Shown here piece by piece: positions 9,580 to 26,854 of a DNA stretch of 64,000 nt. The DNA is taken from assembly GCA_036351795.1 (NCBI GenBank), contig JAZBPW010000020.1, forward strand, positions 1,418-65,417, read 5' to 3'. Under the pieces are notes generated by a model that was not told where the DNA came from, did no database searches, and saw only the letters and a program-made list of their open reading frames with translations. Positions within the stretch are counted from its first letter, which is position 1, and every line of letters starts with the position of its first letter. This stretch comes from Candidatus Zhuqueibacterota bacterium (lineage in GTDB: Bacteria > Zhuqueibacterota > Zhuqueibacteria > Thermofontimicrobiales > Thiofontviventaceae). Position numbers and translations under genes: made by a program.

Positions 9580-9624
9580 AATGAACTCCTTTTCATGAAT
9601 AAATTGATGAGCTCTTGTTCTGTT

Positions 9625-10098
9625 CTAGTTCGTTTTTTCCGTGACTCGGCTGTACATATCTCTGAATGATGCATGATTTCTCTTCAACAAAATGATTGAA
9701 AGCACGAAAATGAAAATAAGTGCGCCAAGGATTCCGATCTCTATCATGTGATATTTGAATTTATCCAGCATATAGGCGCTCTCGACACTGATGACCAGTA
9801 TTCGTCTCACAGCGGCGATCATGGCAACGACAAGAAATGGCTCTGCACAAAGAGCATGGGATTGAATCGAGACACGTACCGTATAGAGTATCTCGACAAC
9901 CATGATCGTGAGCAGTATCCGGTCGATCACATGCAGCGCAGCCTTGATATAATCTCCGTCTCGGAATTCCATGACCAGAGTCTGCATTGCCGTGAAAAGC
10001 AGGAACAGCCCCGTCAGTATCAGTAAAATACCCACAATGCCGTAAATGACATCTTCACTCGATTTGAATATCTTATCCAGCAATTCCAGAGATTTCAT
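9625..10098 (-). CDS. psiE: PsiE-family (phosphate-starvation-inducible E) membrane protein.
   Basis: 157 aa with 4 TM helices, and overall resemblance to PsiE ('...LHVIDRILLTIMVVEI...'). Confidence 0.65.
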   Translation of the reverse strand: MKSLELLDKIFKSSEDVIYGIVGILLILTGLFLLFTAMQTLVMEFRDGDYIKAALHVIDRILLTIMVVEILYTVRVSIQSHALCAEPFLVVAMIAAVRRILVISVESAYMLDKFKYHMIEIGILGALIFIFVLSIILLKRNHASFRDMYSRVTEKTN

Positions 10099-10143
10099 AA
10101 ATCAAACCTCATGCCTGGGTTCCTAGAAAGTTGTCTGATTCCG

Positions 10144-10968
10144 TTACAATTTCGTACCACAATGCCTGCAAAAGCCGGCATCAGCTTCATGATCCACGGC
10201 CTTGCATTGGGAACACTGCTTCTTGTTCTGTTGCCGCTCAAATGTTCGCGTCATCTCTACGGTGACGAACCCAGTCGGGACGACAATGATACTGTAACCC
10301 AGTATCATGATAATCGCGGCCACTGTTTGTCCGAAATTCGTTTTTGGAGAGAGATCTCCATACCCCACGGTTGTCAATGTGACGATTGCCCAGTAAATGC
10401 TTCTGGGGATACTCGTAAATCCCCGTTCTGGGCCCTCCACCACGTAAAGCACGCTGCCGAGTATGACAACGAGTGTGAAAACGGTCAACAAAAAGACTAC
10501 AATTTTCCGGCGGCTGGCCCGCAATGCAATGCCGAGCATCTTCGCCTCTTTAACGTACTGTTCAAACTCAAATATCTGGAATATTCGCAGCAGTCGCACA
10601 ATGCGGATCACCATGAAAAAGTGACTGCCCGGCAGGAAAAGGCTCAGATATGTTGGGATCACCGCTAGCAGATCCACGACACCGAAAAAGCTCCCGGCAT
10701 ATTTCCTTTGGCTGTTGACACATATCAACCGCAACAGGTACTCAATCGTAAAAAGTATTGTGAACAGCCACTCAAGGATGGACAAAATCCCGCCATACTT
10801 CTGTTGTATCGATCCGACACTGTCGAGCATAACCACAATAACGCTCATCAGTATGACGACCAAAAGCATGATGTCAAACAATTTACCGGCCGATGTGTCT
10901 GCCTCGAATATCACCCGATAAAGTGTTGCCCGCCATCTCGTCTTCGGTTGTTGGCTATCTGAATTCAT
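10144..10968 (-). CDS. Voltage-gated K+ channel (6TM Kv-like) with a C-terminal zinc-ribbon tail.
   Basis: Selectivity filter 'TLTTVGYGD'. S4-like Arg repeats 'VIRIVRLLRIFQIFE'. C-terminal 'CSQC...CRHCGTKL'. Confidence 0.85.
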   Translation of the reverse strand: MNSDSQQPKTRWRATLYRVIFEADTSAGKLFDIMLLVVILMSVIVVMLDSVGSIQQKYGGILSILEWLFTILFTIEYLLRLICVNSQRKYAGSFFGVVDLLAVIPTYLSLFLPGSHFFMVIRIVRLLRIFQIFEFEQYVKEAKMLGIALRASRRKIVVFLLTVFTLVVILGSVLYVVEGPERGFTSIPRSIYWAIVTLTTVGYGDLSPKTNFGQTVAAIIMILGYSIIVVPTGFVTVEMTRTFERQQNKKQCSQCKAVDHEADAGFCRHCGTKL

Positions 10969-10977
10969 TTTTTCTCG

Positions 10978-13104
10978 CTATACCGGTTTTCCAAGCAGCA
11001 GCACAGTGCTCCTCGGATTTACCTGGTAATAATATTTGGGATAGATCGCTGCCTCTTTTCCCCGATCGAGGAAATCTCTGCCGCTCGGCAGGCTCGTATC
11101 AACAACTCTGTGCCATACGTTACGATCATGCCGGGGTACTTCGATCAGATGGGCTGCGTCATCAGAATTGTATATCATGAACAGCAGATAGTCGGAATCA
11201 GTTGACGAAATCTCACTGCCGTCAAGTTGAAAACAGATGAATTTAAGTTTTGCATCGTTCCATGCGGGACTTTTCAGATCATTTGCATACCAGGTGATAT
11301 CCGGTACTCTGTCGCCATTGGTGTCCTTACCCGTGAAAAACCGCTTTCTTCTCACTATCGGATAATCTTTACGGAACCGGATCGCCTTCCTGCAGAATGT
11401 GAACATTTCTCTGTTTTTGTAGAGCAGATTCCAATCGAACCAGCTGATCTCATTGTCCTGACAGTATGCATTATTATTGCCCTGTTGCGTCCTCATGAAT
11501 TCATCGCCACCCAGCATCATCGACGTTCCAGAGGAGAAAAACAACAGGCAAAAGGCGTTTTTCATCATCTGCCTGCGCAAGTGAAGTATATTCTTTAAAG
11601 AGACATCTCCCTCTACACCGCAATTCCACGAATAGTTTTCGTTCGCGCCATCTCTATTATCTTCAAGATTTGCTTCGTTATGCTTGGTATTATAGGAATA
11701 GAGATCGTATAATGTAAATCCGTCATGGGCTGTGATGAAATTGATACTGTTGTAAGGCGATCTGTTATCGTTTCCATAGAGGTCAGACGATCCTGTGATA
11801 CGGTAAGCCACCTGATTGACCTGTCCGTCATCACCCCTGAGGAATTTTCTTGCTGTGTCGCGGAATTTATCATTCCACTCAGACCATGCTTCCGGAAAAT
11901 TTCCGACCTGATACGTAGTCAAATCCCACGGTTCGGCGATTAATTTGATATCTTTGAAAACCGGATCTGATTTGATCATTCTGAAAAACTTCGCATTCCG
12001 GTCGAACTTGTTCCGCAACCGGCCGAGAACCGTGGCCAAATCGAATCTGAATCCATCGACATGCATCTCCTCCACCCAGTAGTGCAATGAATCGATGATC
12101 ATCCTCCTTGCCACCGGATTATCCGCCTTGACGGTATTCCCACATCCGGAGGCGTTATGATAGGGCACAATGGATTGTCCGCCTTTCTTTTCCATCCTGT
12201 AATAGGTCAGATTATCGATCCCCTTGAAACAGATCGACGGCCCCCACTCATTACCCTCACCGGTATGGTTGTAAACGACATCGAGGATCACTTCGATGCC
12301 CGCTTTATGCAATTCCCTGACCAGAGTTTTGAATTCATTGACCTGGCAGCCGGGACAGGAACCGCTGCTGTATGATGACTCCGGCATGAAGAATCCGATC
12401 GTGTTGTAACCCCAGTAGTCTCTCAATCCTTTCGATCGCAGGATATCATTTGTATGTGATTCATGAACAGGCAGCAGCTCCACCGCGTTGATTCCCAACT
12501 GTTTCAGGTGTGGTATTTTTTCAACAAAGCCGGTATATGTTCCAGGATTTTTAACCCCCGAAGACGGATGCGCGGTAAAGCCCTTCACATGGGTTTCATA
12601 AATAATGAGTTCTTCAATCGGTATATGCGGTCTTTGATCATGCTGCCAATCGAAATCATCGGTCATGACAATCGATTTGGGTACAATCATCGAATTGTCT
12701 CTGTTATCTTTTCTGTGTACTTCGCCGTCGTAAGGAGTCAGTAAATTGTCAGTATTGATGAATTTACCGGTCAACGCCTTCGCGTATGGATCCATCAAGA
12801 GTTTGTTTTCATTAAAATACAACCCGTGCCCGGGATCGTATTCGCCACAAAGCCTGTAGCCGTATAACTGACCGGGTCCGATGCCGTGTACAAAGGCATG
12901 CCAGACATGATTGTCCTGATACTTCAATTCGATGATGTCTGACGGAGCATCTTCAGGTGCAGGAAAAAGGAGCAGGAAAACCTGGGTTGCTTTCCTGGAG
13001 TAAATGGCAAAATTCACGCCATCGTCTTGTACGGACGCGCCCAGCGGACAATTCGCTCCACTGGACAAGCGCTTGCTTGTTCGATGCTCGAGCTTAATTT
13101 TCAT
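10978..13104 (-). CDS. glgX: Glycogen debranching enzyme GlgX (GH13 isoamylase-type).
   Basis: 708 aa. N-terminal CBM48-like region ('GASVQDDGVNFAIYSRKAT'), GH13 catalytic motifs ('GFRFDLA', 'EPWD'), and overall GlgX architecture. Confidence 0.9.
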   Translation of the reverse strand: MKIKLEHRTSKRLSSGANCPLGASVQDDGVNFAIYSRKATQVFLLLFPAPEDAPSDIIELKYQDNHVWHAFVHGIGPGQLYGYRLCGEYDPGHGLYFNENKLLMDPYAKALTGKFINTDNLLTPYDGEVHRKDNRDNSMIVPKSIVMTDDFDWQHDQRPHIPIEELIIYETHVKGFTAHPSSGVKNPGTYTGFVEKIPHLKQLGINAVELLPVHESHTNDILRSKGLRDYWGYNTIGFFMPESSYSSGSCPGCQVNEFKTLVRELHKAGIEVILDVVYNHTGEGNEWGPSICFKGIDNLTYYRMEKKGGQSIVPYHNASGCGNTVKADNPVARRMIIDSLHYWVEEMHVDGFRFDLATVLGRLRNKFDRNAKFFRMIKSDPVFKDIKLIAEPWDLTTYQVGNFPEAWSEWNDKFRDTARKFLRGDDGQVNQVAYRITGSSDLYGNDNRSPYNSINFITAHDGFTLYDLYSYNTKHNEANLEDNRDGANENYSWNCGVEGDVSLKNILHLRRQMMKNAFCLLFFSSGTSMMLGGDEFMRTQQGNNNAYCQDNEISWFDWNLLYKNREMFTFCRKAIRFRKDYPIVRRKRFFTGKDTNGDRVPDITWYANDLKSPAWNDAKLKFICFQLDGSEISSTDSDYLLFMIYNSDDAAHLIEVPRHDRNVWHRVVDTSLPSGRDFLDRGKEAAIYPKYYYQVNPRSTVLLLGKPV

Positions 13105-13139
13105 TTGTCACTTGAAAAATCATTAAAAACCTGCAATAT

Positions 13140-13192
13140 CCCCTCATCGCCCATCTTTCACAACGGACCGATGAGGGGAAATTTATGCTTGT
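13140..13192 (-). terminator. Probable intrinsic terminator ending the long minus-strand gene chain after dfx.
   Basis: A 10-bp stem (cccctcatcg / cgatgagggg) directly after the dfx stop, followed on the minus strand by 'atattgcaggtttttaatgattttt'. Confidence 0.4.
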
Positions 13193-13194
13193 AT

Positions 13195-13569
13195 CTATGC
13201 CTTCCACAACCCATGAAGGTTGCAATATTCTCTGGCAGATAGTTTTTCAGCGGTCACTTCGAATGTCGCTTCCGGCGCGTCACCCGGATTCAGGAATTTT
13301 CTGTAAACCGTCCCATCCGCAATGAGTTCAATGAATTCGATATAGTGTTTTTCCTCCATTGGATGAGCCACACTACCCACCTTTACAGTCACGGTAGATC
13401 CCGACTGCTCAATAACCGGCACATGTTTTTCCGTAGCCGCGTCCGTGGTATTTTCATTCAGGAGTGTCATATCCTGACCACAACAGACGAGTGTACCACC
13501 ACCCGCGTGAACCACTTCCACCATGTTCCCGCAGACTTCACATTTATAGATTTGATTAAGTTGTGTCAT
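13195..13569 (-). CDS. dfx: Desulfoferrodoxin (2Fe superoxide reductase).
   Basis: N-terminal desulforedoxin Cys cluster '[22 protein letters not shown]', plus a C-terminal SOR domain with 'HVPV' and 'CNLHGLW'. Confidence 0.9.
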
Positions 13570-13584
13570 TTCAACCTCCTGGAC

Positions 13585-14124
13585 TTAAAATTTCTTGAAT
13601 TTGGTGCTGGGCACGTTGCAGACCGGACAATTTTCCGGGGGATCGCCAATGTGAGTAAATCCGCACACAGGGCAAATATAGACCTCATTTATCTCAATGT
13701 CCTTTCCCTTCACGGCTTCCTTTTTCGCGTTCGCGTACATCTCCGCATGGATCTTTTCCGCCTCAACCGCGTAAAGGATGGACTTTTCTGCGCCCTCCTC
13801 GCCCTGGAGCGTAGCAATCGCGTCATACGCCGGGTACATCTCCTCAACTTCGAATGTTTCACCATCAATACCGGTCTGAAGATTGTCTACCGTTTTCTTG
13901 ATGTAGCCCAGATTCCTCGCATGGTTGGTTGCGTGAACCTGTTCGGCGTAGGCAATCGCCTTCCACAGCCGTGCCAGATTCGGGAAACCCTCTCTCTCGG
14001 CAACATCACTGAAAATAAGATATTTCATATGAGCCTGTGATTCACCGGCAAATGCATCCTGCAAAGCATTCTCTGTCATTTTTCTCATTGTAACTCTCCT
14101 GTGTTTATAATTTTTTAAATACAA
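13585..14124 (-). CDS. rbr: Rubrerythrin.
   Basis: Di-iron ferritin-like domain (ExxH motifs) plus a C-terminal rubredoxin-like 'CPVCGF...CPVC'. Confidence 0.9.
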   Translation of the reverse strand: MYLKNYKHRRVTMRKMTENALQDAFAGESQAHMKYLIFSDVAEREGFPNLARLWKAIAYAEQVHATNHARNLGYIKKTVDNLQTGIDGETFEVEEMYPAYDAIATLQGEEGAEKSILYAVEAEKIHAEMYANAKKEAVKGKDIEINEVYICPVCGFTHIGDPPENCPVCNVPSTKFKKF

Positions 14125-14170
14125 TTGTCCCTGTAAACGTCAATAGCACCACATAGAAAAATATTTATCA

Positions 14171-14683
14171 CTATTCCTCTGACGCTGGAGGAGTGAAACT
14201 GCGCTGAGCCAGCTCTCTGTCGATCATGAGGATGCCATGACCCTTCTCACCAACCATTCGAATCTTCTTGAGGATGGCTAGCATACCTGCCTCCTCTTCA
14301 ACCTGTTCATCGATGTACCAGTGGAGAAAACTCTGTGTGGCGTAGTCATTCTCTTCCTTCGCCAAAGCCATCAGATCATTGATGAGCTTGGTAACTTTCT
14401 GCTCGTGTTTCCAGGCATCATCAAAGACCTCCTCGAGTGACTTGTAGTCGATCTTCGGCTGATCGAGTCCATAAATTTTCACATCATGATTCTGCTCGAC
14501 CAAATAATGATAGAATTTCATCGCATGAAATCTTTCCTCTTGTTCCTGAATGACAAAAAAGTTCGCCATTCCGTCCATGTCGACCGATGAACAATACGCT
14601 GCCATTGCCAGGTACAGATGTCCTGAATACAACTCATTTTTAATTTGCTCGTTAATCATAGCTGCCATTTTGTCAGATATCAT
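14171..14683 (-). CDS. ftn: Ferritin (non-haem, bacterial Ftn).
   Basis: 'INEQIKNELYSGHLYLAMAAYC...EQEERFHAMKFYHY' (ferroxidase centre). Confidence 0.85.
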   Translation of the reverse strand: MISDKMAAMINEQIKNELYSGHLYLAMAAYCSSVDMDGMANFFVIQEQEERFHAMKFYHYLVEQNHDVKIYGLDQPKIDYKSLEEVFDDAWKHEQKVTKLINDLMALAKEENDYATQSFLHWYIDEQVEEEAGMLAILKKIRMVGEKGHGILMIDRELAQRSFTPPASEE

Positions 14684-14710
14684 ATCTACCTCTCTGTAAT
14701 TGTTAATAAT

Positions 14711-15166
14711 TTAATTTATTTTTAAAAATTTCACCAGATCGTCGGGTTCCAGACGAAACCGGTTGCCATGCCCCATAAAAAAACAGTGTGAGCCAATCAG
14801 ATGCACACCCAGTTGCGTGAACGTGATCTCTTGATTCAGTGCTTTGTTGCGGACAACTGCCGTGATCTTGTGATGTAGATTCGGCTCGCCGAAAGGGCAA
14901 GGCAGCATACCGCGAAACCAGTTGACGCGTACCGTGAAGTCACCCAGATCGACATTGCTCTCCAAGCCCTTTTTCCCCTCTTCGATGAAATACTGCATGC
15001 GATCCGCGATGGTCTCCGGCTCAATTCCCAGCTGTGAAAGCGTACGCTTGTCCTCTTCGATAATCTCATGTACATGCCGTGTATCACTGCCGAGGAAGCC
15101 CTCTTTCGTCAGTTTTCCCGGCCTAAAATCTTGATATATTTTTTTTTCTTGCGGCGTCTCTTTCAT
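14711..15166 (-). CDS. Conserved-looking hypothetical protein (Cys/His-containing, 151 aa), placed between nqrF and ferritin.
   Basis: Intact ORF, tightly spaced (27 nt to ftn, 71 nt from nqrF). I recognise no family. Contains 'CPFGEPNLHH' and 'GSHCFFMGHGNRF'. Confidence 0.4.
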   Translation of the reverse strand: MKETPQEKKIYQDFRPGKLTKEGFLGSDTRHVHEIIEEDKRTLSQLGIEPETIADRMQYFIEEGKKGLESNVDLGDFTVRVNWFRGMLPCPFGEPNLHHKITAVVRNKALNQEITFTQLGVHLIGSHCFFMGHGNRFRLEPDDLVKFLKIN

Positions 15167-15237
15167 CTGACATATCCCATGTTTTTGTCACTCTGCGCAC
15201 ACCCGGACTAACGGGTATAACCCGTAGCGGTAAAAAC

Positions 15238-16350
15238 TTAGCCGAACGGATCATAAAAAATCTGATCCATTTTCATTTGATATTTCTTCATGACATTGAT
15301 ACTCGCGTTGATCATCCCCGGGCTACCGCATAAATACCCCTGGCATTTGATCGCATCAATTTTCTGCAGGTACTCTTCCAATGGTTTTGTGATAAGCCCG
15401 GTCTCTCCGTCCCATTCATCTTCAGGTTCGGGTTCTGACAGCGCAGGAACAAAAGTAAAGCCCGGAATCTTCTTTTCGAATTCCGCCATTTCATCCAGGT
15501 AAAAAAGATCCTTTCTAGTCAACGCACCGAAAAAGTATGTGATCTTCCTGTCGATCTTCCGGTGTGCAATATCTTCCAGCAGCGAGACCATTGGCGCCAT
15601 TCCCGAACCACCTGCCACCAGAATCATTTCACTGTCAGATTCTCTGATATAGAAATCTCCCATGGGACCGATAATACGTACGTCATCCCCTTCCTGAAGA
15701 TACTCATGCACCCAGGTTGTGCAGATGCCATCCGGCACCAGACGGATCATCAGATCGACATGAGACTTTTCGAAATTCGGCGAGGACATGGAATACGCCC
15801 TGGAGACACTCTCCTTCACATCAGCGTATGGGTTTGTCTGCAGCTGCACGTATTGTCCTGCCTTGAAATTTATCTCATTCGGCTCGATCAGCGAAAATCG
15901 TACCAACTTAATATCATGCGTAAGATCCCGGATCATTGCCACATTCGTCCGGAACTCATTGATATTAAACAACTCTTCCGGTATTTCTATCTTGATATCC
16001 TGCTTGATTTTGATCTGACAGGATAACCGTATATTCTCCTTCATCTCCTCTGCGGTCAGCAGTGGTTCTTCGGTGGGCAGTATCGGCCCCACACCCTCCA
16101 GAACCTTGCACTTGCAATACCCGCAGGTCCCCCGTCCACCACAGGCCGAAGGAAGAAATATTTTTTGAGAATTGAGCGTCGACAACAAGGTTGCCCCCCC
16201 CTGTGTCCTGAACTCCTCATCATCGTTAATGGTGACATTGCACTCGCCATAGTTCGCGAGATATCTCTCGGCAATCACCAGCAGAATGCTGAGGATTGCA
16301 CTGATAGATGCCATGGAGACGGTCGCAATGATTATCTTATATAACATCAC
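15238..16350 (-). CDS. nqrF: Na+-translocating NADH:quinone oxidoreductase subunit F (TM anchor, 2Fe-2S ferredoxin, FAD and NADH domains).
   Basis: 'SACGGRGTCGYCKCKV' (2Fe-2S), 'RAYSMSS' (FAD), 'GGSGMAPM' (NAD). Full-length alignment to Vibrio NqrF. Confidence 0.9.
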   Translation of the reverse strand: MMLYKIIIATVSMASISAILSILLVIAERYLANYGECNVTINDDEEFRTQGGATLLSTLNSQKIFLPSACGGRGTCGYCKCKVLEGVGPILPTEEPLLTAEEMKENIRLSCQIKIKQDIKIEIPEELFNINEFRTNVAMIRDLTHDIKLVRFSLIEPNEINFKAGQYVQLQTNPYADVKESVSRAYSMSSPNFEKSHVDLMIRLVPDGICTTWVHEYLQEGDDVRIIGPMGDFYIRESDSEMILVAGGSGMAPMVSLLEDIAHRKIDRKITYFFGALTRKDLFYLDEMAEFEKKIPGFTFVPALSEPEPEDEWDGETGLITKPLEEYLQKIDAIKCQGYLCGSPGMINASINVMKKYQMKMDQIFYDPFG

Positions 16351-16358
16351 CCCTCGAA

Positions 16359-16949
16359 TTATTGAATTTGTACAATTCCTGAAAAACCGATGAACGCCAT
16401 CGCCATGATGCCAGTAATAATGAGAACAATGCCGGGTCCTCTCAGGGCCGGCGGAATTTTCTTCTCATTCATGCGCTGGCGGATACCTGCCATCGCCAGG
16501 ATGGCCAACAGCCACCCCAGTCCGCTCCCGGCTCCGAACATGACACTTTGAATGAAATTATACTGCCTGATCACCATGAACAACGACACGCCCAGTATCG
16601 CACAATTGACAGTGATCAAAGGAAGAAAAATGCCCAGATTGATGTACAATACCTCTGAAAATCGTTCGATGACCATCTCCAACAGCTGAACCGCGGAGGC
16701 AATAATAATAATGAATGCAATGAAACGCAAGTACTCCAATCCCAACGGTTCCAGCACATAGAAGAAGACGATGTAGTTCAGCGCCGATGTAACCGTCAAT
16801 ACAAATGTGACTGCCAGCCCCAGACCGAGCGATGTCTTCACCTGTTTGGAAACGGACAGGAATGAACACATCCCCAGAAAATAGACAAGCAGAATATTGC
16901 CTGTGAAGATTGACGCAAAAAATATGACCCAGGGGGAAAGATTTTCCAT
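16359..16949 (-). CDS. nqrE: Na+-NQR subunit E.
   Basis: 196-aa, 6TM NqrE/RnfA-family protein, 'FLGMCSFLSVSK'. Confidence 0.9.
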   Translation of the reverse strand: MENLSPWVIFFASIFTGNILLVYFLGMCSFLSVSKQVKTSLGLGLAVTFVLTVTSALNYIVFFYVLEPLGLEYLRFIAFIIIIASAVQLLEMVIERFSEVLYINLGIFLPLITVNCAILGVSLFMVIRQYNFIQSVMFGAGSGLGWLLAILAMAGIRQRMNEKKIPPALRGPGIVLIITGIMAMAFIGFSGIVQIQ

Positions 16950-16964
16950 CCTGTAAATCTCCTT

Positions 16965-17606
16965 CTATTCAGAATGCGATACTTTCATGGCCGACAGATT
17001 ATTCGCGACCCAGATGAATATCGCCAACATAAAAAAGCCGCCGGGTGCCATGATCATCAATGCCCATTGCACCCATCCCTCTGAGGATCCCATTGCCCGG
17101 AGCAATGGATCCATCACCTGATAGCCGACGATCGTTCCGAATCCCAGCAATTCGCGAAAAAAAGCGATCACCAGAATGACGTACATATACCCGACTCCGG
17201 ACATCACCCCATCCAGAAAAGCCAGCCCCGGCTTGTTCGATGAGGCAAATGCCTCCAGCCGACCCATGATGATGCAGTTGGTGATGATCAGTCCGACGTA
17301 CGGTCCGAGCGCCTTGCTGATATCAGGGACATACGCCTTCAGGACGACATCCACGATCACCACAAAACTCGCAATCACCAGTGTCTGAACCATCATGCGC
17401 ACACGCTGGGGAATGATATCCCTGATGAGCGATATCGTCAGGGAGGAAAAGGCAGTGACAAACGTCAGCCCCAGACCCAGGAATAGCGTATTCATGAATA
17501 TGTTCGTCACTGCGAGTGTCGAACATATTCCGAGAATCTGTACCGTCACAGGATTATTCTTCCACAGATCGTCTTTGATGAGTTCAATTGTTTTGTTATT
17601 CGCCAT
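16965..17606 (-). CDS. nqrD: Na+-NQR subunit D.
   Basis: 213-aa NqrD/RnfE-family protein, 'NPVTVQILGICSTLAVT'. Confidence 0.9.
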   Translation of the reverse strand: MANNKTIELIKDDLWKNNPVTVQILGICSTLAVTNIFMNTLFLGLGLTFVTAFSSLTISLIRDIIPQRVRMMVQTLVIASFVVIVDVVLKAYVPDISKALGPYVGLIITNCIIMGRLEAFASSNKPGLAFLDGVMSGVGYMYVILVIAFFRELLGFGTIVGYQVMDPLLRAMGSSEGWVQWALMIMAPGGFFMLAIFIWVANNLSAMKVSHSE

Positions 17607-17608
17607 AT

Positions 17609-18361
17609 TTATGATTTCACTTTATTGATTGCATTTTCATTCGACTGTATCAGTGCAATATAAAAACGAAGGTCGGTATTCACCATTTTCAGAACGCCAT
17701 CCACTGTTTGCGTCGCTCCCGTGATCGCCTGAAGCTCATTCGTAGACTCTTCCACGTTGCTGCGATTTTTCTGTTTGATCATGATCACCGGTGCCAGCTC
17801 TCTTCCGGATTTAAAAAATCCACTCAGATCGAGATTCCTGAAGAAATATTTGAACTCGGATTCCGTGATCCGGGCTCCCAGTCCGGGTGTCTCCACCTGT
17901 TCCGTGAAATCGATGCCGATCATCCGCTGCAGGTCGGCCGAAATGACACCAAATGCACTGATCGTACCCCACAGTCCTTTTCCACGCATCGGGAAACCGT
18001 ATGATACGATTCCTCCGGTCGAATCTGTTCGCGTGTAAATCGTGATGGAATCACTGACAGACAGAAAACTGCCGGAAAGCAGATCTTTCTGCGCAGCCGT
18101 GACAGGCAAGCGCAGCTCTCTGATTTCAGATTCGATCCGATCGGTAATGAATGATTCAGCATAAGGGATGTTTTCGGTAGTGCTGGCCGGTCCGAGATCG
18201 TGTTCTTCGATATTTGCCGGTAGTATATCAAAGGCATAGAGAATGGATTTGTAGTTGTTCAGCTTCAGGTTTTCGGCGATACGCTCTCTCGACACTTCAT
18301 TGACTGTTGCCAGTGTCGAAATGAACAGGACCGTGACTATCACCATGAATAGGATTGTCAT
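17609..18361 (-). CDS. nqrC: Na+-NQR subunit C (FMN-binding). I moved the start to the internal Met (MTILFMV...), because the 135-codon upstream extension in the ORF track would overlap nqrB.
   Basis: N-terminal TM helix, then an FMN-binding domain with 'ITGATQT' (covalent FMN Thr). The ORF track's extension reads as low-complexity Arg-rich junk. Confidence 0.8.
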   Translation of the reverse strand: MTILFMVIVTVLFISTLATVNEVSRERIAENLKLNNYKSILYAFDILPANIEEHDLGPASTTENIPYAESFITDRIESEIRELRLPVTAAQKDLLSGSFLSVSDSITIYTRTDSTGGIVSYGFPMRGKGLWGTISAFGVISADLQRMIGIDFTEQVETPGLGARITESEFKYFFRNLDLSGFFKSGRELAPVIMIKQKNRSNVEESTNELQAITGATQTVDGVLKMVNTDLRFYIALIQSNENAINKVKS

Positions 18362-18372
18362 CAGACTTTTTT

Positions 18373-19383
18373 TCAAGAGGGCGCCCTCCCTGTCTTGTAT
18401 GCCTTGACAGCGTAGTCGATGATCGGTCCGAACATATTGCCCAGAAGCACGGCAAACGTCAATCCGCCCGAAAAGAGTGCGAAGGATTTGATAATGATCG
18501 TCAATACGGCGATCAATCCGCCGTAAATGTAGCGCGTCAGATCCATCTTTGGTGCGGATACCGGATCGGTGATGATGTAGAAACCACCGTATATCGTCGA
18601 TCCCATCAGCACACCGTAAAATGGATTGGGGACCTTTGCCGGTATGATGAGATGCAGAATGCCGTCGAAAATAAAGTAGGCGACAAAAAAGCTGACGACG
18701 ATCTTCCAGTTGGCCGCTTTCTTGTAGACCAGATAGAGTCCCCCGATCACCAGCAAGAGCGCGCATATCTCTCCCTGAGATCCGGCCCCGATCAAGGTCA
18801 ATTCACCCAGTCTTTCGAACTGCCCGTTGATATTGCCAAGTATCAACTGCAGATAATCCGGCAAGGTGGATGCACCTTCTTTATAAGCGATCTGGGGTGT
18901 GGCCTCGGTAATGGCAGAGAGATAGTCGCTGGTGGAATAAAACTGCCATCTGGCGAATCCAGCCGGGAAATCACTGAAGTTTGCCGCCGGGATCCAGCTG
19001 TTGGTCATGTGGATCGGAAAGGTTATATAGACGAATGCCCTGCCGGTCATCGCCGGATTGAACACATTGAATCCGAATCCACCGAATGCCATCTTGCCGA
19101 ACACAATCCCGAACACGGCACCGATAACGACCATGTACATCGGTAATGTCGGTGGAAGTGAAAGACCGTATAAAAACGCTGTCACCAGGACCGCCTCGGA
19201 AACTTTGCCATTCTGTTTACGCACAAACATCCACTCGGCAATGACGCAACTGACGACAGAGAGCGCCAGCATGGCAAAGCTTCGCCAGCCGAAGAAAAAG
19301 ACTGCCGCAAACACGACCGGAATCAGCGTGTATACGACGGTTCGCATGACTTTCTGTTTTTGAAATTGGATTTTCATCATCAT
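18373..19383 (-). CDS. nqrB: Na+-NQR subunit B (NqrB/RnfD family).
   Basis: 'GGFGFNVFNPAMTGRAF', 'IITDPVSAP'. 336-aa polytopic membrane protein. Confidence 0.85.
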   Translation of the reverse strand: MMMKIQFQKQKVMRTVVYTLIPVVFAAVFFFGWRSFAMLALSVVSCVIAEWMFVRKQNGKVSEAVLVTAFLYGLSLPPTLPMYMVVIGAVFGIVFGKMAFGGFGFNVFNPAMTGRAFVYITFPIHMTNSWIPAANFSDFPAGFARWQFYSTSDYLSAITEATPQIAYKEGASTLPDYLQLILGNINGQFERLGELTLIGAGSQGEICALLLVIGGLYLVYKKAANWKIVVSFFVAYFIFDGILHLIIPAKVPNPFYGVLMGSTIYGGFYIITDPVSAPKMDLTRYIYGGLIAVLTIIIKSFALFSGGLTFAVLLGNMFGPIIDYAVKAYKTGRAPS

Positions 19384-19386
19384 TAT

Positions 19387-19746
19387 CTAGAAAGTTAAGA
19401 TTTCATACCCCTGTTCAATATATCTTCTCGTACTGGGATGGCCGGACATATCATCGCATATCTTCAATCCCTGCTCTTGCGCCGCGGAAAGGGATCCCAT
19501 CTTGGACGCGCATGCCTTGCATACGCAATCGAAAAGCCCGAGATCCTTTACTTTGTGATAGAGATTTGAAAACGGCTTGCTGGTATCCTTCAATTCCGCG
19601 ATCTGTTTGGTCGCAGACCCTTCCATGATGACTTTAACGTCATATCCGTTTTCGTGCAGATCGATGGCATTCAACAGGACATGCACGAAACACATAACTT
19701 CACCATTAAACGCGAATAAAGCGATCTTTTTCGTTTTGTAATCCAC
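19387..19746 (-). CDS. Small DsrE/DsrF-like (sulfur-relay fold) protein, immediately upstream of nqrB with a 3-nt gap.
   Basis: 'KIALFAFNGE...HVLLNAIDL...YDVKVIMEGSA' resembles the DsrE/DsrF family. Conserved Cys pair 'CVCKAC'. Confidence 0.55.
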   Translation of the reverse strand: MDYKTKKIALFAFNGEVMCFVHVLLNAIDLHENGYDVKVIMEGSATKQIAELKDTSKPFSNLYHKVKDLGLFDCVCKACASKMGSLSAAQEQGLKICDDMSGHPSTRRYIEQGYEILTF

Positions 19747-19749
19747 AGA

Positions 19750-21834
19750 TTAATATGTCTCCTTATTGGTAAATTGCAATGTATGATAGAAATGATCAAA
19801 CTCTTCGACAGAGGTGAAGGGCGCTTTACAACTGAAATTTTCACAGACAAACACTTTGACGTCGCCACCCGGCAAAACCTTGCCGTTCACCAGTGGAAAG
19901 AGAATATGTTCTTTCTCGCGAATGCTTCCATCCGCGTACGCCAAAACTTTATTGGGCAGATATTTGATCTGAATGGCTGATTTAAATTCTGTGAATGTCG
20001 CAGCGTCCCGTGGACCACTGAGAACAATCTCTTTTGCGGAATGAGTCAGGAAGTCTAGCGCGCAGAGCAGATGCGAAAATCCGAACGGGTAATTCTCGAT
20101 CTTGCCGGCATACATTCGGAAGGCTTCCGACGCTTTTTCCATTAGAATGTGATCACCCGTAAACCGGCCCAATCGTACCAGGCTGTGCACTGCGGCAGAA
20201 TTCCCGGATGGCACCGGATTGTCATATGGATTTCTTGTGCGCAACAGGATATCTGATTGTTCCATTTCCGTGAAGTAAAAACCTCCTTCTTCCTCATCCC
20301 AAAATTTGGCCAGCATACTGTCATTCAACTCGACAGCTGTGCTGAGATGGCTGAGTTCGAAAGATGTCTCATAAAGATCGAGCAGTGCTTCGATCAATAA
20401 TGCGTAATCCGATAGATAGCCATTAATTTGCGCCCTTCCAGCGCGCCATGTTCTCTTCAGTGATTTATCAATATATAGATTTTGCAATAAAAAATCAACC
20501 GCTTTTTGAGCCGCTTCAAGGTACATTTGCTCACCAAGCACCTGATGCGCCTTGCACAAAGCGGATATCATCATCGCGTTCCATGATGTGAGTATCTTAT
20601 CGTCCGTCCCCGGAGGCACTCGCTGAGATCGCCGGGACAATAGTACCGCTCTCGCATCGGCCATGCGCTGCGACAGATCACTTTCATCGATCGCATACTC
20701 TTTGGCGACAGGCGCATTGGACCTTCTCTGATGCAAAATGTTGACGCCTTCCCAATTACCTCCTCTTGAGACTCCGTAGAAATCCATGAAGAGTTTCGCA
20801 GGCTCTTCTCCCAGAAGGTCCACCACTTCGCTTGCATCCCACACGTAATATTTCCCTTCCTCTCCCTCACTGTCCGCATCCTGGGAAGAATAGAAACCGC
20901 CCTTCGGAGATGTCATCTCATCCAGGACGTATTTCAGTGTCGATCTCGCGATTTCCGTGTAAATTGTCTTTTTTGTGAGTTGAAAAGCCTCAAGATAGGT
21001 GCTGGTCAACAGAGCATTGTCATACAGCATTTTTTCGAAGTGTGGCACCAGCCAGCGCTCGTCAGTAGAGTAGCGATGAAATCCACCACCGAGATGATCG
21101 TATATGCCACCGCGCGCCATTTCGTCAAGTGTTTTTTCTACCATACTCAGCGCGCTACGCTCACCTGTATGAAAATAGTAGCGAAGCAGGAATGCCAATT
21201 CCATCGGCTGGGGAAATTTGGGCGCCTTTCCAAAACCACCATTTCGTTCATCGAATTGACGAACGGCGGTGTCAAAGGCCGGCTTCCATAAATGCATGCC
21301 GATCTCGCCGGCACCTGTACCCGGACTCTCCAGCTGCATCAACTGTTCAGTCAGTTCATCCGCGCTCTTCATCAGTTCGTCATTCCTATCCTTCCAGACA
21401 TCGACAATTTGAAGTAGCATATTTTTAAATCCAGGCCGCCCCCAGCGATCGTCAGGCGGAAAATATGTACCCCCGAAAAAGGGTTTGCGCAGAGGCGTCA
21501 GCCATATGGACAGAGGCCAGCCGCCGCTGCCGGTCATCATCTGTACGGCATTCATATAGATATTGTCGATATCGGGCCGCTCTTCGCGATCCACTTTAAT
21601 GGAGACGAAATGTTCATTGAGAATAGACGCAATCTCTTCGTTTTGGAAGGATTCATGCTCCATCACATGGCACCAATGACAGGCGGAATAGCCGATTGAG
21701 AGGAAGATGGGCTTGTTCAATTCGCGAGCCAGCCTCAATGCGTCATCTCCCCACGGATACCAGTTCACTGGATTGTGGGCGTGTTGCAACAGGTACGGAC
21801 TCGTTTCATTGATCAAATGATTGGTGTATTTCAA
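19750..21834 (-). CDS. yyaL: Thioredoxin-domain protein of the YyaL/DUF255 family (N-terminal thioredoxin fold plus an alpha/alpha-toroid domain).
   Basis: '[51 protein letters not shown]' (the signature CHWCH). Confidence 0.85.
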
Positions 21835-21935
21835 TTTTGTTTGCGACTCCTCACAATCGATTCAGGTATATGCGAAAGTTAATATAGCGATCAGGACAAT
21901 ATAGCCTGATGATTTCATCAATTTACAGGCTGTGA

Positions 21936-22166
21936 TCAGAGCTTTTTTCTGACATATGCCCTGTATTCATCCTTGCTGGTTTCAATTCCCAGAAATTCAT
22001 GTCCTGTCATTTTGCACCAGTTGGGCATATCCTCAACGATCCCCTCGTCATCTGATACCACTTCAAGCGTTTCTCCGACAGCCAGCTCTTTGATCTTTTC
22101 AGCCGTTTTGATAATCGGCATGGGACAATAAAGTCCAAGGCAATCTATTGTCATATCGGTTTTCAT
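21936..22166 (-). CDS. tusA: TusA-like sulfur-carrier protein.
   Basis: 76 aa with 'CLGLYCPMP' (the CPxP motif). Confidence 0.8.
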   Translation of the reverse strand: MKTDMTIDCLGLYCPMPIIKTAEKIKELAVGETLEVVSDDEGIVEDMPNWCKMTGHEFLGIETSKDEYRAYVRKKL

Positions 22167-22188
22167 GAAAAAGTGATCACTCCCTGTC

Positions 22189-22680
22189 CTAGATAAATAG
22201 TGTGGTACTGCTTTCCTGCGAGATTGCTAAAAACGACGCCACTCCGGCGACATTGTCCACTTCCGGGATCAGCGACTCTTTCGGGATCCCCATCACATTC
22301 ATGCTCGTGCTGCAGGCGGTGAAATTTACACCCAGTGATTTGGCTGTCGTCAGCATTTCGGACAAAGACGGCAACTTTGATTTCTTCATGATCTTTTTCA
22401 TCATTGCCGCGCCGGCGCCAGCCATGTTCATCCTGGAAATTGGTCTCTTATCCGGACCGGGTTTCACCATGACATTGAAAAGCCTTCTCAGGAGGTCGTT
22501 CTTCCCGCGCTTCGAGCCCTTTTCCTGCAATAGTTTCAACCCCCAGAACGTAAAAAACATATTCACCCTCATTCCAGAAGCGGCTGCTCCGGTAGCGATG
22601 GTCAGTGCCGCGAAGATCTTGTCCAGATCGCCGCTGAACACGATCAGAGCGATGGAATTCTTGTCGCCGTTATCATTCAT
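22189..22680 (-). CDS. DsrE/DsrF-like family protein.
   Basis: 'SIALIVFSGDLDK...FFTFWGLKLL...FTACSTSMNVMGI'. 163 aa. Overlaps the iscU stop by 8 nt. Confidence 0.6.
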   Translation of the reverse strand: MNDNGDKNSIALIVFSGDLDKIFAALTIATGAAASGMRVNMFFTFWGLKLLQEKGSKRGKNDLLRRLFNVMVKPGPDKRPISRMNMAGAGAAMMKKIMKKSKLPSLSEMLTTAKSLGVNFTACSTSMNVMGIPKESLIPEVDNVAGVASFLAISQESSTTLFI

Positions 22681-23113
22681 CGTGAGCTTCGTCGTGTTCC
22701 ATCTCTTCTTCAGATTTCAGCTTGATGGGCGAAGGGACACCCTTCTTCTTGTAATAGTCATCCAGAGCGCTCTGTAGCGCCTGCTCCGCCAGCACCGAAC
22801 AGTGCCGCTTCACCTTTGGTAGACCACCGAGCTCCTGAGTGACCTGTTCATTGGTGATCTCCAGGGCTTCATCTATTTTCTTTCCCTTGATCAGCTCGGT
22901 TGCCATACTGCTGGTGGCAATTGCCGCACCGCAGCCGAATGTCTTGAATTTGGCGTCGACAATCACATCATCCTTCACCTTGATATACATCTGCATGATA
23001 TCGCCGCACGACGGATTGCCAACCGTACCGATGCCATCGGGATCTTCAATTTCACCGACGTTACGCGGATTCATGAAATGATCCATCACTTTTTCACTGT
23101 ATGGTGTATTCAT
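22673..23113 (-). CDS. iscU: Fe-S cluster scaffold NifU/IscU.
   Basis: 'GNPSCGDIMQMYIKV', 'FKTFGCGAAIATSS', 'KRHCSVLAEQAL' (three conserved Cys). Confidence 0.9.
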   Translation of the reverse strand: MNTPYSEKVMDHFMNPRNVGEIEDPDGIGTVGNPSCGDIMQMYIKVKDDVIVDAKFKTFGCGAAIATSSMATELIKGKKIDEALEITNEQVTQELGGLPKVKRHCSVLAEQALQSALDDYYKKKGVPSPIKLKSEEEMEHDEAHDE

Positions 23114-23133
23114 ATTCGATCCTTTTCTTGATT

Positions 23134-24297
23134 CTATTTTTTATATAATGGAGACATCATCCGCAATCGTTCAACGATCGGCGGCAGTTTCTCTACGAGC
23201 AAATCGATCTCGTTTTTCGTATTGTCAATACCAAGCGTAAACAATATTGTTCCATTGGCAATGGCGTGAGAAACGCCGATCGCAAGAAGAACATGCGACG
23301 CTTTCAAGGCCCGCGATGTACACGCGGAACCACTCGACGCCAGAATATTGAAAGTGCCCAACATCAGGAGAATCGACTCACCCTCGATGTATTCAAATCC
23401 AAAATTGACATTGTTCGGCAGCCGCAACGTGCGGTGGCCATGCAGACTCACATGTTCGATTTTGCTCTCCAGAGACTCGATGAGATGGTCTCGAAGAGAT
23501 GTGACAAAATCGACGCGCATGGTCATATCCCGCGCCGCGATTTCAGCCGCTGTACCCATACCCACGATTCCCGGCACATTCTCCGTCCCGGCGCGACGTC
23601 CGTTTTCCTGCGTTCCTCCATCTATCAATGGATTGATGCGCGACCCTTTCCTGATGTATAGCGCGGCAGACCCTTTGGGTCCATAAAAAGTAGTTCCCGC
23701 AAGACTCATGAAATCCAGATTCATATCCTTTACATCGACAGGAACGCTGCCAACAGTCTGCACGCCATCCGAATGAAAGAGGATATCCCGCGCCTTCACA
23801 ATCCCGGCGATCTCCCGTATGGGTTCAATCGTGCCGATCTCGTGATTCGCATGCATAATGGACACGAGAATCGTGTCATCCCTGAGCGCCTTCTTCACAT
23901 CATCCGGGTCTAACAGGCCATTTGAATCGACCGGGACTTTTGTGATTTCGAATCCCAGTTTTTCGAGCGATCTGGCAGCCTGTAATACTGAAAAATGCTC
24001 GATTTCCGAGACGACGATATGTCTGCCTTTCTTGCCCAGTGCGAAGGCGACGCCCTTCAATGCAAAGTTATTCGATTCACTTCCGCTCGACGTGAAGATA
24101 ATCTCCTCTGGCGAGGCATTGATCAGGGCTGCGACCTGCGCTCTGGCTTTGTCTATCGCATCTTTGATCTTCTGTCCCTCAAGATGCAGACTCGAAGGAT
24201 TTCCGTACAGGTCCCTGATGTAAGGCTGCATGCTCTTCGCGACTTCGTCCAGAGGCCGAGTTGCAGAGGCATGGTCAAAATTTATTATTTCACTCAT
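23134..24297 (-). CDS. NifS/IscS-family cysteine desulfurase homologue with the PLP Schiff-base Lys replaced. 'SGHK(I/L)YGPKG' has become 'AGTTFYGPKG'. The catalytic Cys loop (SSGSACTS) is intact.
   Basis: Full-length alignment to IscS. TSSGSESNN, the His and the Asp are all retained. I read the H-K to T-T change directly from the DNA: the reverse complement of 23677-23706 reads 'agtcttgcgggaactactttttatggaccc'. Confidence 0.85.
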   Translation of the reverse strand: MSEIINFDHASATRPLDEVAKSMQPYIRDLYGNPSSLHLEGQKIKDAIDKARAQVAALINASPEEIIFTSSGSESNNFALKGVAFALGKKGRHIVVSEIEHFSVLQAARSLEKLGFEITKVPVDSNGLLDPDDVKKALRDDTILVSIMHANHEIGTIEPIREIAGIVKARDILFHSDGVQTVGSVPVDVKDMNLDFMSLAGTTFYGPKGSAALYIRKGSRINPLIDGGTQENGRRAGTENVPGIVGMGTAAEIAARDMTMRVDFVTSLRDHLIESLESKIEHVSLHGHRTLRLPNNVNFGFEYIEGESILLMLGTFNILASSGSACTSRALKASHVLLAIGVSHAIANGTILFTLGIDNTKNEIDLLVEKLPPIVERLRMMSPLYKK

Positions 24298-24306
24298 ATA
24301 TTTATC

Positions 24307-25017
24307 TCACTGATTGACTTTATTTTGAATAAAGGTGATGGCCCTCAGGGGACGGCAGTCCTTCGGACATACCTTCACGCAGTTCGCATGCTTATCACAG
24401 TCGAACACACCATTCTCACGGCTGCTCATCTCCTTCCGCGATGCCAGCTCCGCATCCCTCGGGTCAAACACCTGCTTATAGATTTGAATAGAGACTGCCG
24501 GACCTATGAACTCCGGCGAATCATCTACCTTCGGACAATCCGCATAACAGCATCCGCATTTAATGCAATCGGCAGAACGATTCAATTGGTCGAGGTGTAT
24601 TTTATCCAGATGCGCTTCATATGTCAAGCGTTCGTCCGCCAGATCTTTTTCCCGGACAAGCCAGGGCATGGTTTTTTCTATCTCCTGCCACATCGTTCTC
24701 TGATCCACCACCAGATCTTTGATCACATCAAAATGCGTAAGGGGCTCCAGTGTGACGACGTCATTCTCTTTCAGCATATCATTCACCTGGGTCTTGCACG
24801 CCAATCGTGCCTGTCCGTTGATCTTGATCGCACATGTACCGCATATTGCGCCACGGCACGAATAACGGTAAGCCAATGTCGCATCCTGCTCATCATGGAT
24901 CTGATGCAGCAGGTCGAGAACCGACATTCCCGGTTTGAATTGAGCCGTATATTCCACCTGCGCGCCTGTTTTCTCTTTTTCCGGATTGTATCTGTAGATC
25001 TTGACTTTAAATTCCAT
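24307..25017 (-). CDS. sdhB: Succinate dehydrogenase / fumarate reductase iron-sulfur subunit.
   Basis: 2Fe-2S 'CRGAICGTCAIKING', 4Fe-4S 'CIKCGCCYADCP', 3Fe-4S 'CVKVCPKDCRP'. Confidence 0.9.
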   Translation of the reverse strand: MEFKVKIYRYNPEKEKTGAQVEYTAQFKPGMSVLDLLHQIHDEQDATLAYRYSCRGAICGTCAIKINGQARLACKTQVNDMLKENDVVTLEPLTHFDVIKDLVVDQRTMWQEIEKTMPWLVREKDLADERLTYEAHLDKIHLDQLNRSADCIKCGCCYADCPKVDDSPEFIGPAVSIQIYKQVFDPRDAELASRKEMSSRENGVFDCDKHANCVKVCPKDCRPLRAITFIQNKVNQ

Positions 25018-25080
25018 CCTGAAAATCCCTTGTTGTTATTTCACTAAAAGGAAAAAATCAATAATAAATTTTGATTGAAA

Positions 25081-26778: not shown

Positions 26779-26825
26779 TCAACAATCCCTTTCTTGCAAT
26801 TTGTACTTATTTTCTGTTTGTAATC

Positions 26826-26854
26826 AATATAAATTAAAAACATACCAAAATCAA
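26826..26854 (-). promoter_or_regulatory. Candidate sigma70-type promoter for the sdhA-led minus-strand chain.
   Basis: On the minus strand: TTGATT, 17 nt, TATATT, about 40 nt upstream of the sdhA ATG. An AAGGGA SD lies nearby. Confidence 0.3.

Follow-up and report, generated by a model that had tools for sequence, protein, structure and literature searches.

On the minus strand of a 64,000-nt stretch of contig JAZBPW010000020.1 from a Candidatus Zhuqueibacterota (KSB1) bacterium, hereafter the window, lies an operon with nqrB, nqrC, nqrD, nqrE and nqrF and without nqrA (Table 1). One redox-driven ion pump is known in two forms, NQR and RNF, and of its subunits NqrA alone has no assigned function. 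The original prediction for this DNA had all five genes present without nqrA at 15238-19746, with a DsrE/DsrF-like gene of 119 aa placed 3 nt from nqrB and next to YyaL; gene calls and Pfam/NCBIfam models agree with the first statement, and coordinates, Pfam and predicted fold with the second. The gene conserved with the operon is another one, which lies outside that segment and encodes an unannotated soluble protein of 151 residues (p151). Calling the subunits B', C', D', E' and F', we suggest, at a probability of roughly 0.55, that they represent a distinct NqrA-less subfamily of RNF/NQR pumps that has p151 as its partner and feeds oxygen and peroxide defence.

From 13.2 to 26.8 kb, the minus strand holds a single co-directional run of genes that begins with sdhA/frdA and closes with the desulfoferrodoxin gene, with gaps of 3 nt both between YyaL and the DsrE-like gene and between the latter and nqrB. 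The true start of the nqrC-like gene is the ATG at 18361, and the 385-aa nqrC open reading frame (ORF) of the mechanical list was rejected as an over-extension into nqrB. A promoter and terminator scan of 13000-27200 was uninformative about operon boundaries, the counts lying near the shuffled expectation. The p151 of the window is 100% identical to V2J62_01120 of a candidate division KSB1 bacterium.

Table 1. Features of the window and, below them, ORFs of related loci (L numbers) that are discussed in the text
Locus	Feature	Positions	Strand	Length	Assignment or remark
Window	Protein with AAA_22-like domain	20-3094	minus	1024 aa	
Window	bd-like/multihaem protein	5846-8500	minus	884 aa	
Window	Polytopic membrane protein	8500-9579	minus	359 aa	
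Window	Desulfoferrodoxin	13195-13569	minus		Pfam
Window	Rubrerythrin with rubredoxin-like domain	13585-14124	minus		Pfam
Window	Ferritin	14171-14683	minus		Pfam; downstream of p151
Window	p151, unannotated soluble protein	14711-15166	minus	151 aa	71 nt downstream of nqrF
Window	nqrF-like (F')	15238-16350	minus	370 aa	Pfam Fer2, FAD_binding_6, NAD_binding_1
Window	nqrE/rnfA-like membrane subunit (E')	16359-16949	minus	196 aa	Pfam Rnf-Nqr
Window	nqrD/rnfE-like membrane subunit (D')	16965-17606	minus	213 aa	NF006777
Window	nqrC/rnfG-like (C')	17609-18361	minus	~250 aa	Pfam FMN_bind; one membrane helix and periplasmic domain
Window	Short nqrB/rnfD-like (B')	18373-19383	minus	336 aa	TIGR01946
Window	DsrE-like	19387-19746	minus	119 aa	Pfam DsrE
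Window	YyaL/DUF255 thioredoxin-domain protein	19750-21834	minus		Pfam Thioredox_DsbH, 264 bits
Window	TusA	21936-22166	minus		Pfam/NCBIfam
Window	DsrE2	22189-22680	minus		Pfam/NCBIfam
Window	NifU	22673-23113	minus		Pfam/NCBIfam
Window	NifS	23134-24297	minus		Pfam/NCBIfam
Window	SdhB/FrdB	24307-25017	minus		Pfam/NCBIfam
Window	SdhA/FrdA	25081-26778	minus		Pfam/NCBIfam
Window	FAD/4Fe-4S/CCG fusion	37822-40923	plus	1033 aa	
Window	Housekeeping genes	46914-55159	plus		
L001	Small ferredoxin ORF	9123-9311			
L006	Small ferredoxin ORF	9134-9328			
L007	Small ferredoxin ORF	58-255			
L029	Small ferredoxin ORF	223-441			
L032	Small ferredoxin ORF	9608-9841			
L014	Flavodiiron protein	4583-5752			KSB1 clade
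L047	Long ORF with RnfD-like domain	8420-11041		873 aa	Lentisphaerales

The operon belongs to a large family. Close homologues of B', about 335 aa in length, number more than 1000, and a profile scan with their alignment, at one genome per species, yielded the best 80 loci of 155 relatives. Compared across these relatives, as had been proposed, the operon keeps the order B-C-D-E-F in all 80 loci, from roughly ten phyla, with NqrF wherever the contig is long enough and with no NqrA- or RnfC-like gene within 10-kb flanks. The carriers comprise KSB1/Zhuqueibacterota, KSB3/Moduliflexus/Vecturithrix, Caldithrix, Delongbacteria, Fibrobacteres, Spirochaetota, Clostridiales, Peptostreptococcaceae, Christensenella, Lentisphaerae, Verrucomicrobia, Thermotogaceae and Desulfobacterota, the last including the type strains Desulfacinum infernum DSM 9756 and D. 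hydrothermale DSM 13146. The lack of nqrA is a property of the whole family and not a local accident.

The earlier observation that the window holds no NqrA/RnfC-like ORF was reproduced by two approaches. Among the window ORFs of at least 300 aa and many smaller ones, Pfam gave no match to NQRA, RnfC_N, Complex1_51K or SLBB, nor any RnfB or RnfC match in the window. Six-frame phmmer searches of the window and of 1.35 Mb of related loci gave 0 matches at E <= 10 for Vibrio cholerae NqrA (identical to PDB 7xk3_A), while Escherichia coli RsxC and RsxB returned only small ferredoxin ORFs at weak E-values, which are ferredoxin-type noise; with RsxD as a positive control every B subunit was recovered. 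By these searches, neither the window nor the 10-kb flanks of the 80 loci hide an unannotated or fragmented NqrA/RnfC ORF. The genes upstream of nqrB vary across loci and are frequently on the opposite strand, and ten large ORFs in that place, considered as candidates for a divergent NqrA, are by Pfam unrelated to NqrA/RnfC: they encode a flavodiiron protein, an acyl-CoA dehydrogenase, DnaJ, an SIS/CBS protein, PfkB, ATP sulfurylase and a histidine kinase, with two further ORFs without a family and one over-extended RnfD ORF. No apbE was found among the window ORFs of at least 300 aa or among the recurrent neighbour families.

An nqrA (or rnfC with rnfB) encoded elsewhere in the genome would make the enzyme a canonical NQR or RNF, and that the window is 64 kb of an 89-kb contig in a metagenome-assembled genome (MAG) leaves room for such a gene. 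We nevertheless consider this scarcely credible, given that NqrA and RnfC are missing around the operon in 80 related loci, that B' lacks the NqrB-specific N terminus, that an RnfC partner would give a futile NADH-to-NAD+ loop, and that the complete genomes of Pseudothermotoga lettingae, P. thermarum and Clostridium ultunense are reported to lack nqrA in the passages of the genome papers that deal with these clusters (PMC4148951, PMC5924567). The original prediction had left two possibilities, an nqrA elsewhere or a different partner; the 80 loci and the published genomes favour the second and make the first unlikely.

That partner is most plausibly p151. In a profile search of the loci, p151 stands directly after nqrF in 52 of the 62 determinable loci (L078 being entered by hand), usually at a distance of 0-50 nt or overlapping it, and was not found in any other place in the loci. 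Three lineages with NqrF proteins 63-73% identical carry homologues 62-63% identical at the corresponding place. All-against-all clustering ranked p151 as the fifth family, present in 44 loci, the next family reaching 12, and reverse look-ups of P0287, P0282, P0276 and the distant P0368 (~35% identity) placed four out of four next to nqrF. The divergence of p151 follows that of F' and B' with r = 0.87-0.88, compared with 0.91 for F' against B'. At E <= 1e-3 the family comprises 1629 clusters at 50% identity.

The p151 protein has no significant match in Pfam (including a search with 32 aligned members at E <= 5), in NCBIfam or among PDB sequences. Its AlphaFold model is confident (predicted local distance difference test, pLDDT, 93.8; predicted template-modelling score, pTM, 0.87) and had no Foldseek match in the PDB, the best template-modelling (TM) score being 0.24. 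Seventeen residues are invariant (G23, F24, G26, D28, R30, I35, D39, R85, G86, P91, F92, K100, H127, F129, G132, R138 and P141). No signal peptide or membrane helix was seen by eye, and the protein appears to be cytoplasmic. An NqrM-like or Fe-S carrier function is unlikely, since the protein lacks both an invariant Cys and a membrane helix. An analogy, and only that, may be drawn with RnfH of some RNF complexes, which a recent review describes as a small, soluble, operon-encoded protein with no evident cofactor (PMC12174285); no relation in sequence or fold between RnfH and p151 was detected. Some homologues occur as tandem repeats, with two matched stretches in P0371 (385 aa) and three in P0291 (885 aa).

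Judged by bit scores against hidden Markov models (HMMs) and PDB sequences, the only yardstick used for relation to NQR as against RNF, the complex is a mosaic. F' matches V. cholerae NqrF (8a1t_F) over its full length with 213 bits and has no RNF counterpart, although it stays just under the TIGR01941 cut-off (293.6 against 295 bits); with its N-terminal membrane helix, 2Fe-2S ferredoxin domain and FNR domain binding flavin adenine dinucleotide (FAD) and NADH, it is the NADH entry module. D' is nearer to NqrD than to RnfE (180.7 against 132.6 bits in the PDB) and is the sole subunit above its NCBIfam NQR equivalog cut-off (NF006777, nqrD; 243.5 bits, cut-off 235). The preference is slight for E', at 194 bits for NqrE and 190 for RnfA in the PDB and 222.5 for nqrE (cut-off 247.6) and 217.3 for rnfA in NCBIfam, and clearer for C', at 42 bits for NqrC against 24 for RnfG in the PDB and 83-90 for the nqrC models (cut-off 144) against 54-57 for rnfG in NCBIfam. 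B' goes the other way: it passes TIGR01946 (rnfD; 226.5 bits, cut-off 207), falls far short of TIGR01937 (nqrB; 165 against 350) and scores 130 bits with RnfD and 104 with NqrB in the PDB, the best matches being 8ahx_D and 7zc6_D.

Set beside the Na+-NQR of V. cholerae, Prevotella and others, the present operon thus has an F' of the NQR type and has D', E' and C' nearer to NqrD, NqrE and NqrC than to RnfE, RnfA and RnfG, and it shares the gene order B-C-D-E-F and all cofactor ligands. It differs in lacking NqrA and in having p151 as an extra conserved gene after nqrF, in a B subunit ~80 residues shorter and RnfD-like (336 aa, against 415 aa for V. cholerae NqrB), in an F' that is ~40 residues shorter than NqrF, and in that most of its subunits fall under the NCBIfam equivalog cut-offs for Na+-NQR. 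With RNF (RnfCDGEAB) it shares the membrane core, B' being closest to the Azotobacter vinelandii and Clostridium tetanomorphum RnfD structures, whereas RnfC and RnfB are replaced by NqrF, so that the donor should be NADH and not ferredoxin. The earlier assignment to the NqrF type rather than Rnf is therefore upheld: RnfB and RnfC were not found, and no related locus that extends far enough is without NqrF. The label nqrB fares less well, since the models score the subunit higher as RnfD even though the operon around it is of the nqrF type. The combination of an RnfD-like B with NQR-like D, E, C and F subunits could be an evolutionary intermediate between RNF and NQR, and the mixture bears on the origin of NQR from RNF. 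In practice, annotation pipelines split these operons between the names 'Rnf subunit D' and 'Nqr subunit B', and such split naming can mislead metabolic reconstructions towards quinone-linked Na+ respiration.

The cofactor ligands, counted over 53-71 sequences per subunit, are conserved throughout. The four Cys ligands of the intramembrane 2Fe-2S centre, as defined by Kishikawa et al., 2022 (PMC9325719), are invariant in D' (C28 and C111, 53/53 members) and in E' (C28 and C116, 60/60). C' carries the flavinylation motif TGAT at residues 217-220 (numbered on a 253-aa translation), and the pattern [ST]GA[ST] is found in 61/61 members. In B', the threonine for covalent flavin mononucleotide (FMN), T162, is present in 100% of 71 sequences, as is A161, and aligns with the 'TGAT' motif of A. 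vinelandii RnfD, while the riboflavin-binding Asp, D273, is D or E in 71/71, T272 being conserved in 100% and P274 in 70/71. F' retains C70, C76, C79 and C111 in 61/61 members and an RAYS motif in at least 60/61. Since the ligands are invariant, we regard the operon as encoding a working electron-transfer machine under selection and not as a decaying one. With the flavinylation-site Thr conserved in both B' and C', flavinylation of both is predicted, and at the level of sequence an NADH-oxidizing F' is followed by a complete, conserved set of cofactor sites that leads to the riboflavin of B'. F' would oxidize NADH by way of its FAD and 2Fe-2S centre, and the conserved ligands imply that the electrons probably reach riboflavin on the cytoplasmic side of B'; translocation of Na+ or H+ may be coupled to this path as in NQR and RNF, by homology with the solved structures.

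Conservation of the path as far as B' also bears on the idea that the complex is a one-way electron exporter, in which the periplasmic FMN of C' passes the electrons on to extracytosolic acceptors and the return path through B' is unimportant. FMN_bind proteins do serve extracytosolic electron transfer in many systems (PMC8238504), and L001, L002 and the window have genes for multihaem cytochromes close to the operon. We nevertheless hold it to be very unlikely: the FMN Thr and the riboflavin residue of B' are conserved in 100% of the sequences, a sign that electrons do return through B', and p151, the conserved partner, appears from its sequence to be cytoplasmic.

In V. cholerae, ubiquinone lies at the rim of NqrB in contact with L138, G141, N156 and F159, with two N-terminal amphipathic helices (L26, A29 and L33) as its clamp, D346 holds the riboflavin, and any replacement of G141 would block quinone binding (Hau et al., 2023; PMC10643135); korormicin and aurachin bind the same N-terminal region of NqrB (Kishikawa et al., 2022; PMC9325719). 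The alignment of B' with V. cholerae NqrB starts only at NqrB residue 144 (B' residue 50), so that ~95 N-terminal residues of NqrB, including the amphipathic helices AH-I and AH-II, have no counterpart in B'. The presumptive equivalent of Gly141, B' position 47, is Val in the window protein, and in 66 of the 71 family members this place is taken by V, F, T, I, A or C, the six commonest residues, Gly not being one of these. Neither of the features of the V. cholerae-type quinone site, the N-terminal helices and Gly141, is thus seen in B', and as judged from these alignments a site of that type would be absent. An RnfD-like domain of a different build was seen in a Lentisphaerales MAG (L047), where it forms the C-terminal third of an 873-aa open frame whose N-terminal 535 residues have no Pfam match; this could be an ORF over-extension or a true N-terminal fusion.

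A quinone may still be the acceptor, at another kind of site, and this is the main rival to our interpretation. The complex would then be a plain NADH:menaquinone oxidoreductase without NqrA, with a modified, membrane-facing quinone site in B', and p151 would be a cap, an assembly factor or a co-regulated gene. Many of the carriers speak against this, as Thermotogaceae, Spirochaetota and Clostridia are commonly without respiratory quinones, and so does B' itself, which lacks the quinone-clamping N-terminal helices and in which Gly is not among the common residues at position 47; moreover, where they treat the cluster, the authors of the Thermotogae and C. ultunense genome papers also called the acceptor unknown (PMC4148951, PMC5924567). 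In its favour, NqrA has no cofactor and no assigned function and may be dispensable, according to the review cited above (PMC12174285), and the V. cholerae quinone site lies in NqrB (PMC10643135). Further, E63 of B', the counterpart of NqrB Glu157, which is important for the binding of quinone-site inhibitors, is kept in 42/71 sequences, bd-type oxidases and SdhAB/FrdAB are encoded near the operon in this KSB1 genome and in relatives, and in one Desulfobacteraceae locus (L054) sdhAB comes next after nqrF. On balance we regard a menaquinone acceptor as possible but lean against it.

In our preferred interpretation, that of an NqrA-less subfamily with p151, the complex would consist of B', C', D', E' and F' without NqrA or RnfC, as a subfamily of the redox-driven ion pumps of anaerobes, and p151 would be a sixth subunit or a docking partner at its cytoplasmic face. 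Electrons from NADH may then pass to rubrerythrin, rubredoxin-type proteins, nitroreductase-like flavoproteins or peroxiredoxin, instead of or beside the quinone pool. Two kinds of evidence point in this direction. Firstly, fusions of p151 with rubrerythrin, rubredoxin (with a frameshifted tail), nitroreductase and AhpC-like domains occur among metagenome proteins, and the nitroreductase fusion is encoded directly after nqrF, inside the nqr operon. Secondly, genes for rubrerythrin-type proteins lie near the operon in ~18 loci, for ferritin and for nitroreductase-family proteins in 10 loci each, for AhpC/peroxiredoxin in 8, and for Fur-like regulators and desulfoferrodoxin in 5 each; NifS, NifU, DsrE2 and TusA are found there in 6-11 loci each, including Spirochaetota, and superoxide dismutase and cytochrome bd are encoded close to the operon in L001 and L002. 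These recurrent stress-gene neighbours are common to several phyla, and such gene context suggests a link between the pump and oxygen/peroxide defence. That the acceptor is a soluble protein of peroxide or oxygen defence is speculative.

Several points weigh against this interpretation. The p151 fusions are singletons on short contigs, one of them visibly frameshifted, and may be read-through of adjacent genes. The protein has neither an invariant Cys nor a recognizable cofactor motif, so that no electron-transfer role can be assigned to it; that it acts with the complex we infer from gene linkage; and it is missing after nqrF in 10/62 loci (Peptostreptococcaceae, other Clostridia and several Desulfobacterota), which means that it is not obligatory. 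The stress genes, which cluster in many anaerobes, may be neighbours as parts of a shared regulon and not through direct electron transfer. To place Gly141, the HMMER alignment had to be carried on by three ungapped residues within a helix, and we take this mapping to be reliable, not proven. The retention of E63 in many B' sequences and the genes for a bd-type oxidase-like protein and fumarate reductase in this KSB1 genome would also fit a menaquinone at a modified site, and the absence of nqrA covers the window and 10-kb flanks.

Two of the loci deserve a separate remark. In a KSB1 MAG (L014), a flavodiiron protein with ODP metallo-beta-lactamase and flavodoxin domains ends exactly at the start of nqrB, the tightest link of the pump to an O2/NO-reducing enzyme that we saw. 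In L054, where p151 is absent, sdhAB follows nqrF by ~300 nt, and the pump may here be paired with fumarate reductase in a second way that does without p151.

We have also considered a more far-reaching form of the proposal, in which the operon stands for a third RNF/NQR class, an NADH-driven pump with neither NqrA nor a quinone site, where p151, with its novel fold, occupies the place of NqrA/RnfC and passes electrons to soluble proteins of oxygen and peroxide detoxification. As a whole this is unlikely. Even so, an NqrA-less family without the NQR quinone-site features implies that the RNF/NQR core can work with a different exit, and p151 is a specific candidate for the missing partner. If the acceptor does belong to oxygen/peroxide defence, this would be a new energy-conserving route of oxidative-stress protection in strict anaerobes, and the cultured carriers Desulfacinum infernum, D. 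hydrothermale and Pseudothermotoga lettingae make its biochemistry feasible.

An nqrBCDEF cluster without nqrA is, as such, already known, although the family is uncharacterized. In the relevant passages of genome papers (PMC4148951, PMC5924567, PMC6256511), genomes without nqrA are described as carrying such clusters, with an acceptor called unknown, in P. lettingae (Tlet_0865-0869), P. thermarum (Theth_1137-1141), C. ultunense (CUESP_0375-0379) and 'Ca. Izimaplasma'. Going by these descriptions, on which our comparison with the Pseudothermotoga and C. ultunense clusters rests, the five genes and their order are the same as in the present operon, and a Thermotogaceae locus of our set (L077) is a member of the present family with p151. 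The passages concerned mention the cluster in passing, without reference to an RnfD-like B subunit, to missing quinone-site features, to its phylum-wide spread, to a conserved downstream gene or to an oxidative-stress context (PMC4148951, PMC5924567, PMC6256511). An evolutionary survey of NQR demanded all six subunits, whereby the present family was left out, and reported no nqr operon in Thermotogae (PMC4014512); an NqrA-less class is not dealt with in the available text of the 2025 review (PMC12174285), and a flavinylation survey defined NQR by NqrF alone (PMC8238504). The 'NQR/RNF-like' systems of that survey (Meheust et al., 2021) are likewise a partial NQR/RNF apparatus using NAD(P)H, but they consist of a single protein in which an NqrB/RnfD domain is fused to an NAD-binding domain, with one electron path, mainly in Actinobacteria and the candidate phyla radiation (PMC8238504), whereas here the four core membrane subunits are all present and a full NqrF is a protein of its own. 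What is new is a distinct NqrA-less subfamily with an RnfD-type B subunit and a conserved unannotated sixth gene.

The DsrE-like gene, which the original prediction had placed in the position of nqrA and named as a candidate partner along with YyaL and SdhAB, calls for a different reading. Its product is a DsrE-fold protein, matching Pfam DsrE (PF02635) with 23.2 bits against a cut-off of 22.7, and its AlphaFold model (pLDDT 95.8) resembles in Foldseek first the DsrE/DsrF-like proteins ST0148 (TM 0.72/0.78) and BT1422 (0.68/0.70) and next DsrEFH (0.58). C19, H22, C76, C79 and H103 are invariant in the family (115 aa); the C19/H22/C76-x-x-C79/H103 set resembles a metal or redox site rather than the single active-site Cys of DsrE/TusD. 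As a stand-in for NqrA, a peripheral subunit in the shape of this protein (or of YyaL or SdhAB) could appeal to the 3-nt gaps on either side of the gene, to its adjacency to nqrB in the close clade L002 (51 nt; B' 65% identical) and to several DsrE-like and B' matches on common contigs. Across the family the picture is different: the DsrE-like gene is found in 4 of ~85 non-redundant loci and abuts nqrB only in the window and L002, the distance being 3.8 kb in L006 and 7.5 kb in L032. Its family is broad, with 706 matches that include Acidobacteriota, WOR-3, Thorarchaeota and Thermoplasmatota, and homologues 60-65% identical in WOR-3, Thorarchaeota and one further bacterium are lone genes, without nqr genes in their surroundings. 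In other loci the place before nqrB is taken by an HMA protein with a small ferredoxin (L001), by TusA (L088), by a nitroreductase (L019, L024 and L031), by a flavodiiron protein (L014) or by nothing. We therefore judge such a subunit extremely improbable.

None of the three proposed partners is conserved with the operon across loci, YyaL being confined to the window, L002 and L006; as conserved partners all three are ruled out by locus statistics and the DsrE-like protein also by its lone contexts. The DsrE-like gene is a lineage-specific member of a local island of redox, sulfur-trafficking and stress genes and not a subunit. In several KSB1-clade relatives small 4Fe-4S ferredoxin ORFs (60-80 aa) lie just upstream of nqrB (Table 1), in the place that the DsrE-like gene fills in the window.

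Further genes of the window were noted in passing. The sdhA/frdA and sdhB/frdB genes have nifS directly next to them and no adjoining membrane-anchor gene. The 884-aa protein has a weak cytochrome bd subunit-I-like N terminus followed by several c-type and multihaem domains (Cytochrom_c3_2, Cytochrome_C7, MtrC/MtrF-like and cbb3-type), an unusual bd-like/multihaem fusion, and its ORF is overlapped by that of the 359-aa polytopic membrane protein, which has no Pfam family. In the 1024-aa protein at the start of the window the sole recognizable domain is a weak AAA_22 at residues 708-819. The plus strand carries an unremarkable housekeeping stretch with an Obg/DRG-like GTPase, two 2-oxoacid:ferredoxin oxidoreductase subunits, a radical SAM/DUF2344 protein and RNase E/G, and, before it, the 1033-aa fusion of FAD_binding_4, FAD-oxidase_C, 4Fe-4S dicluster and two CCG (HdrD-like) domains, which looks like a GlcD/GlcF-type lactate or glycolate dehydrogenase in a single chain.

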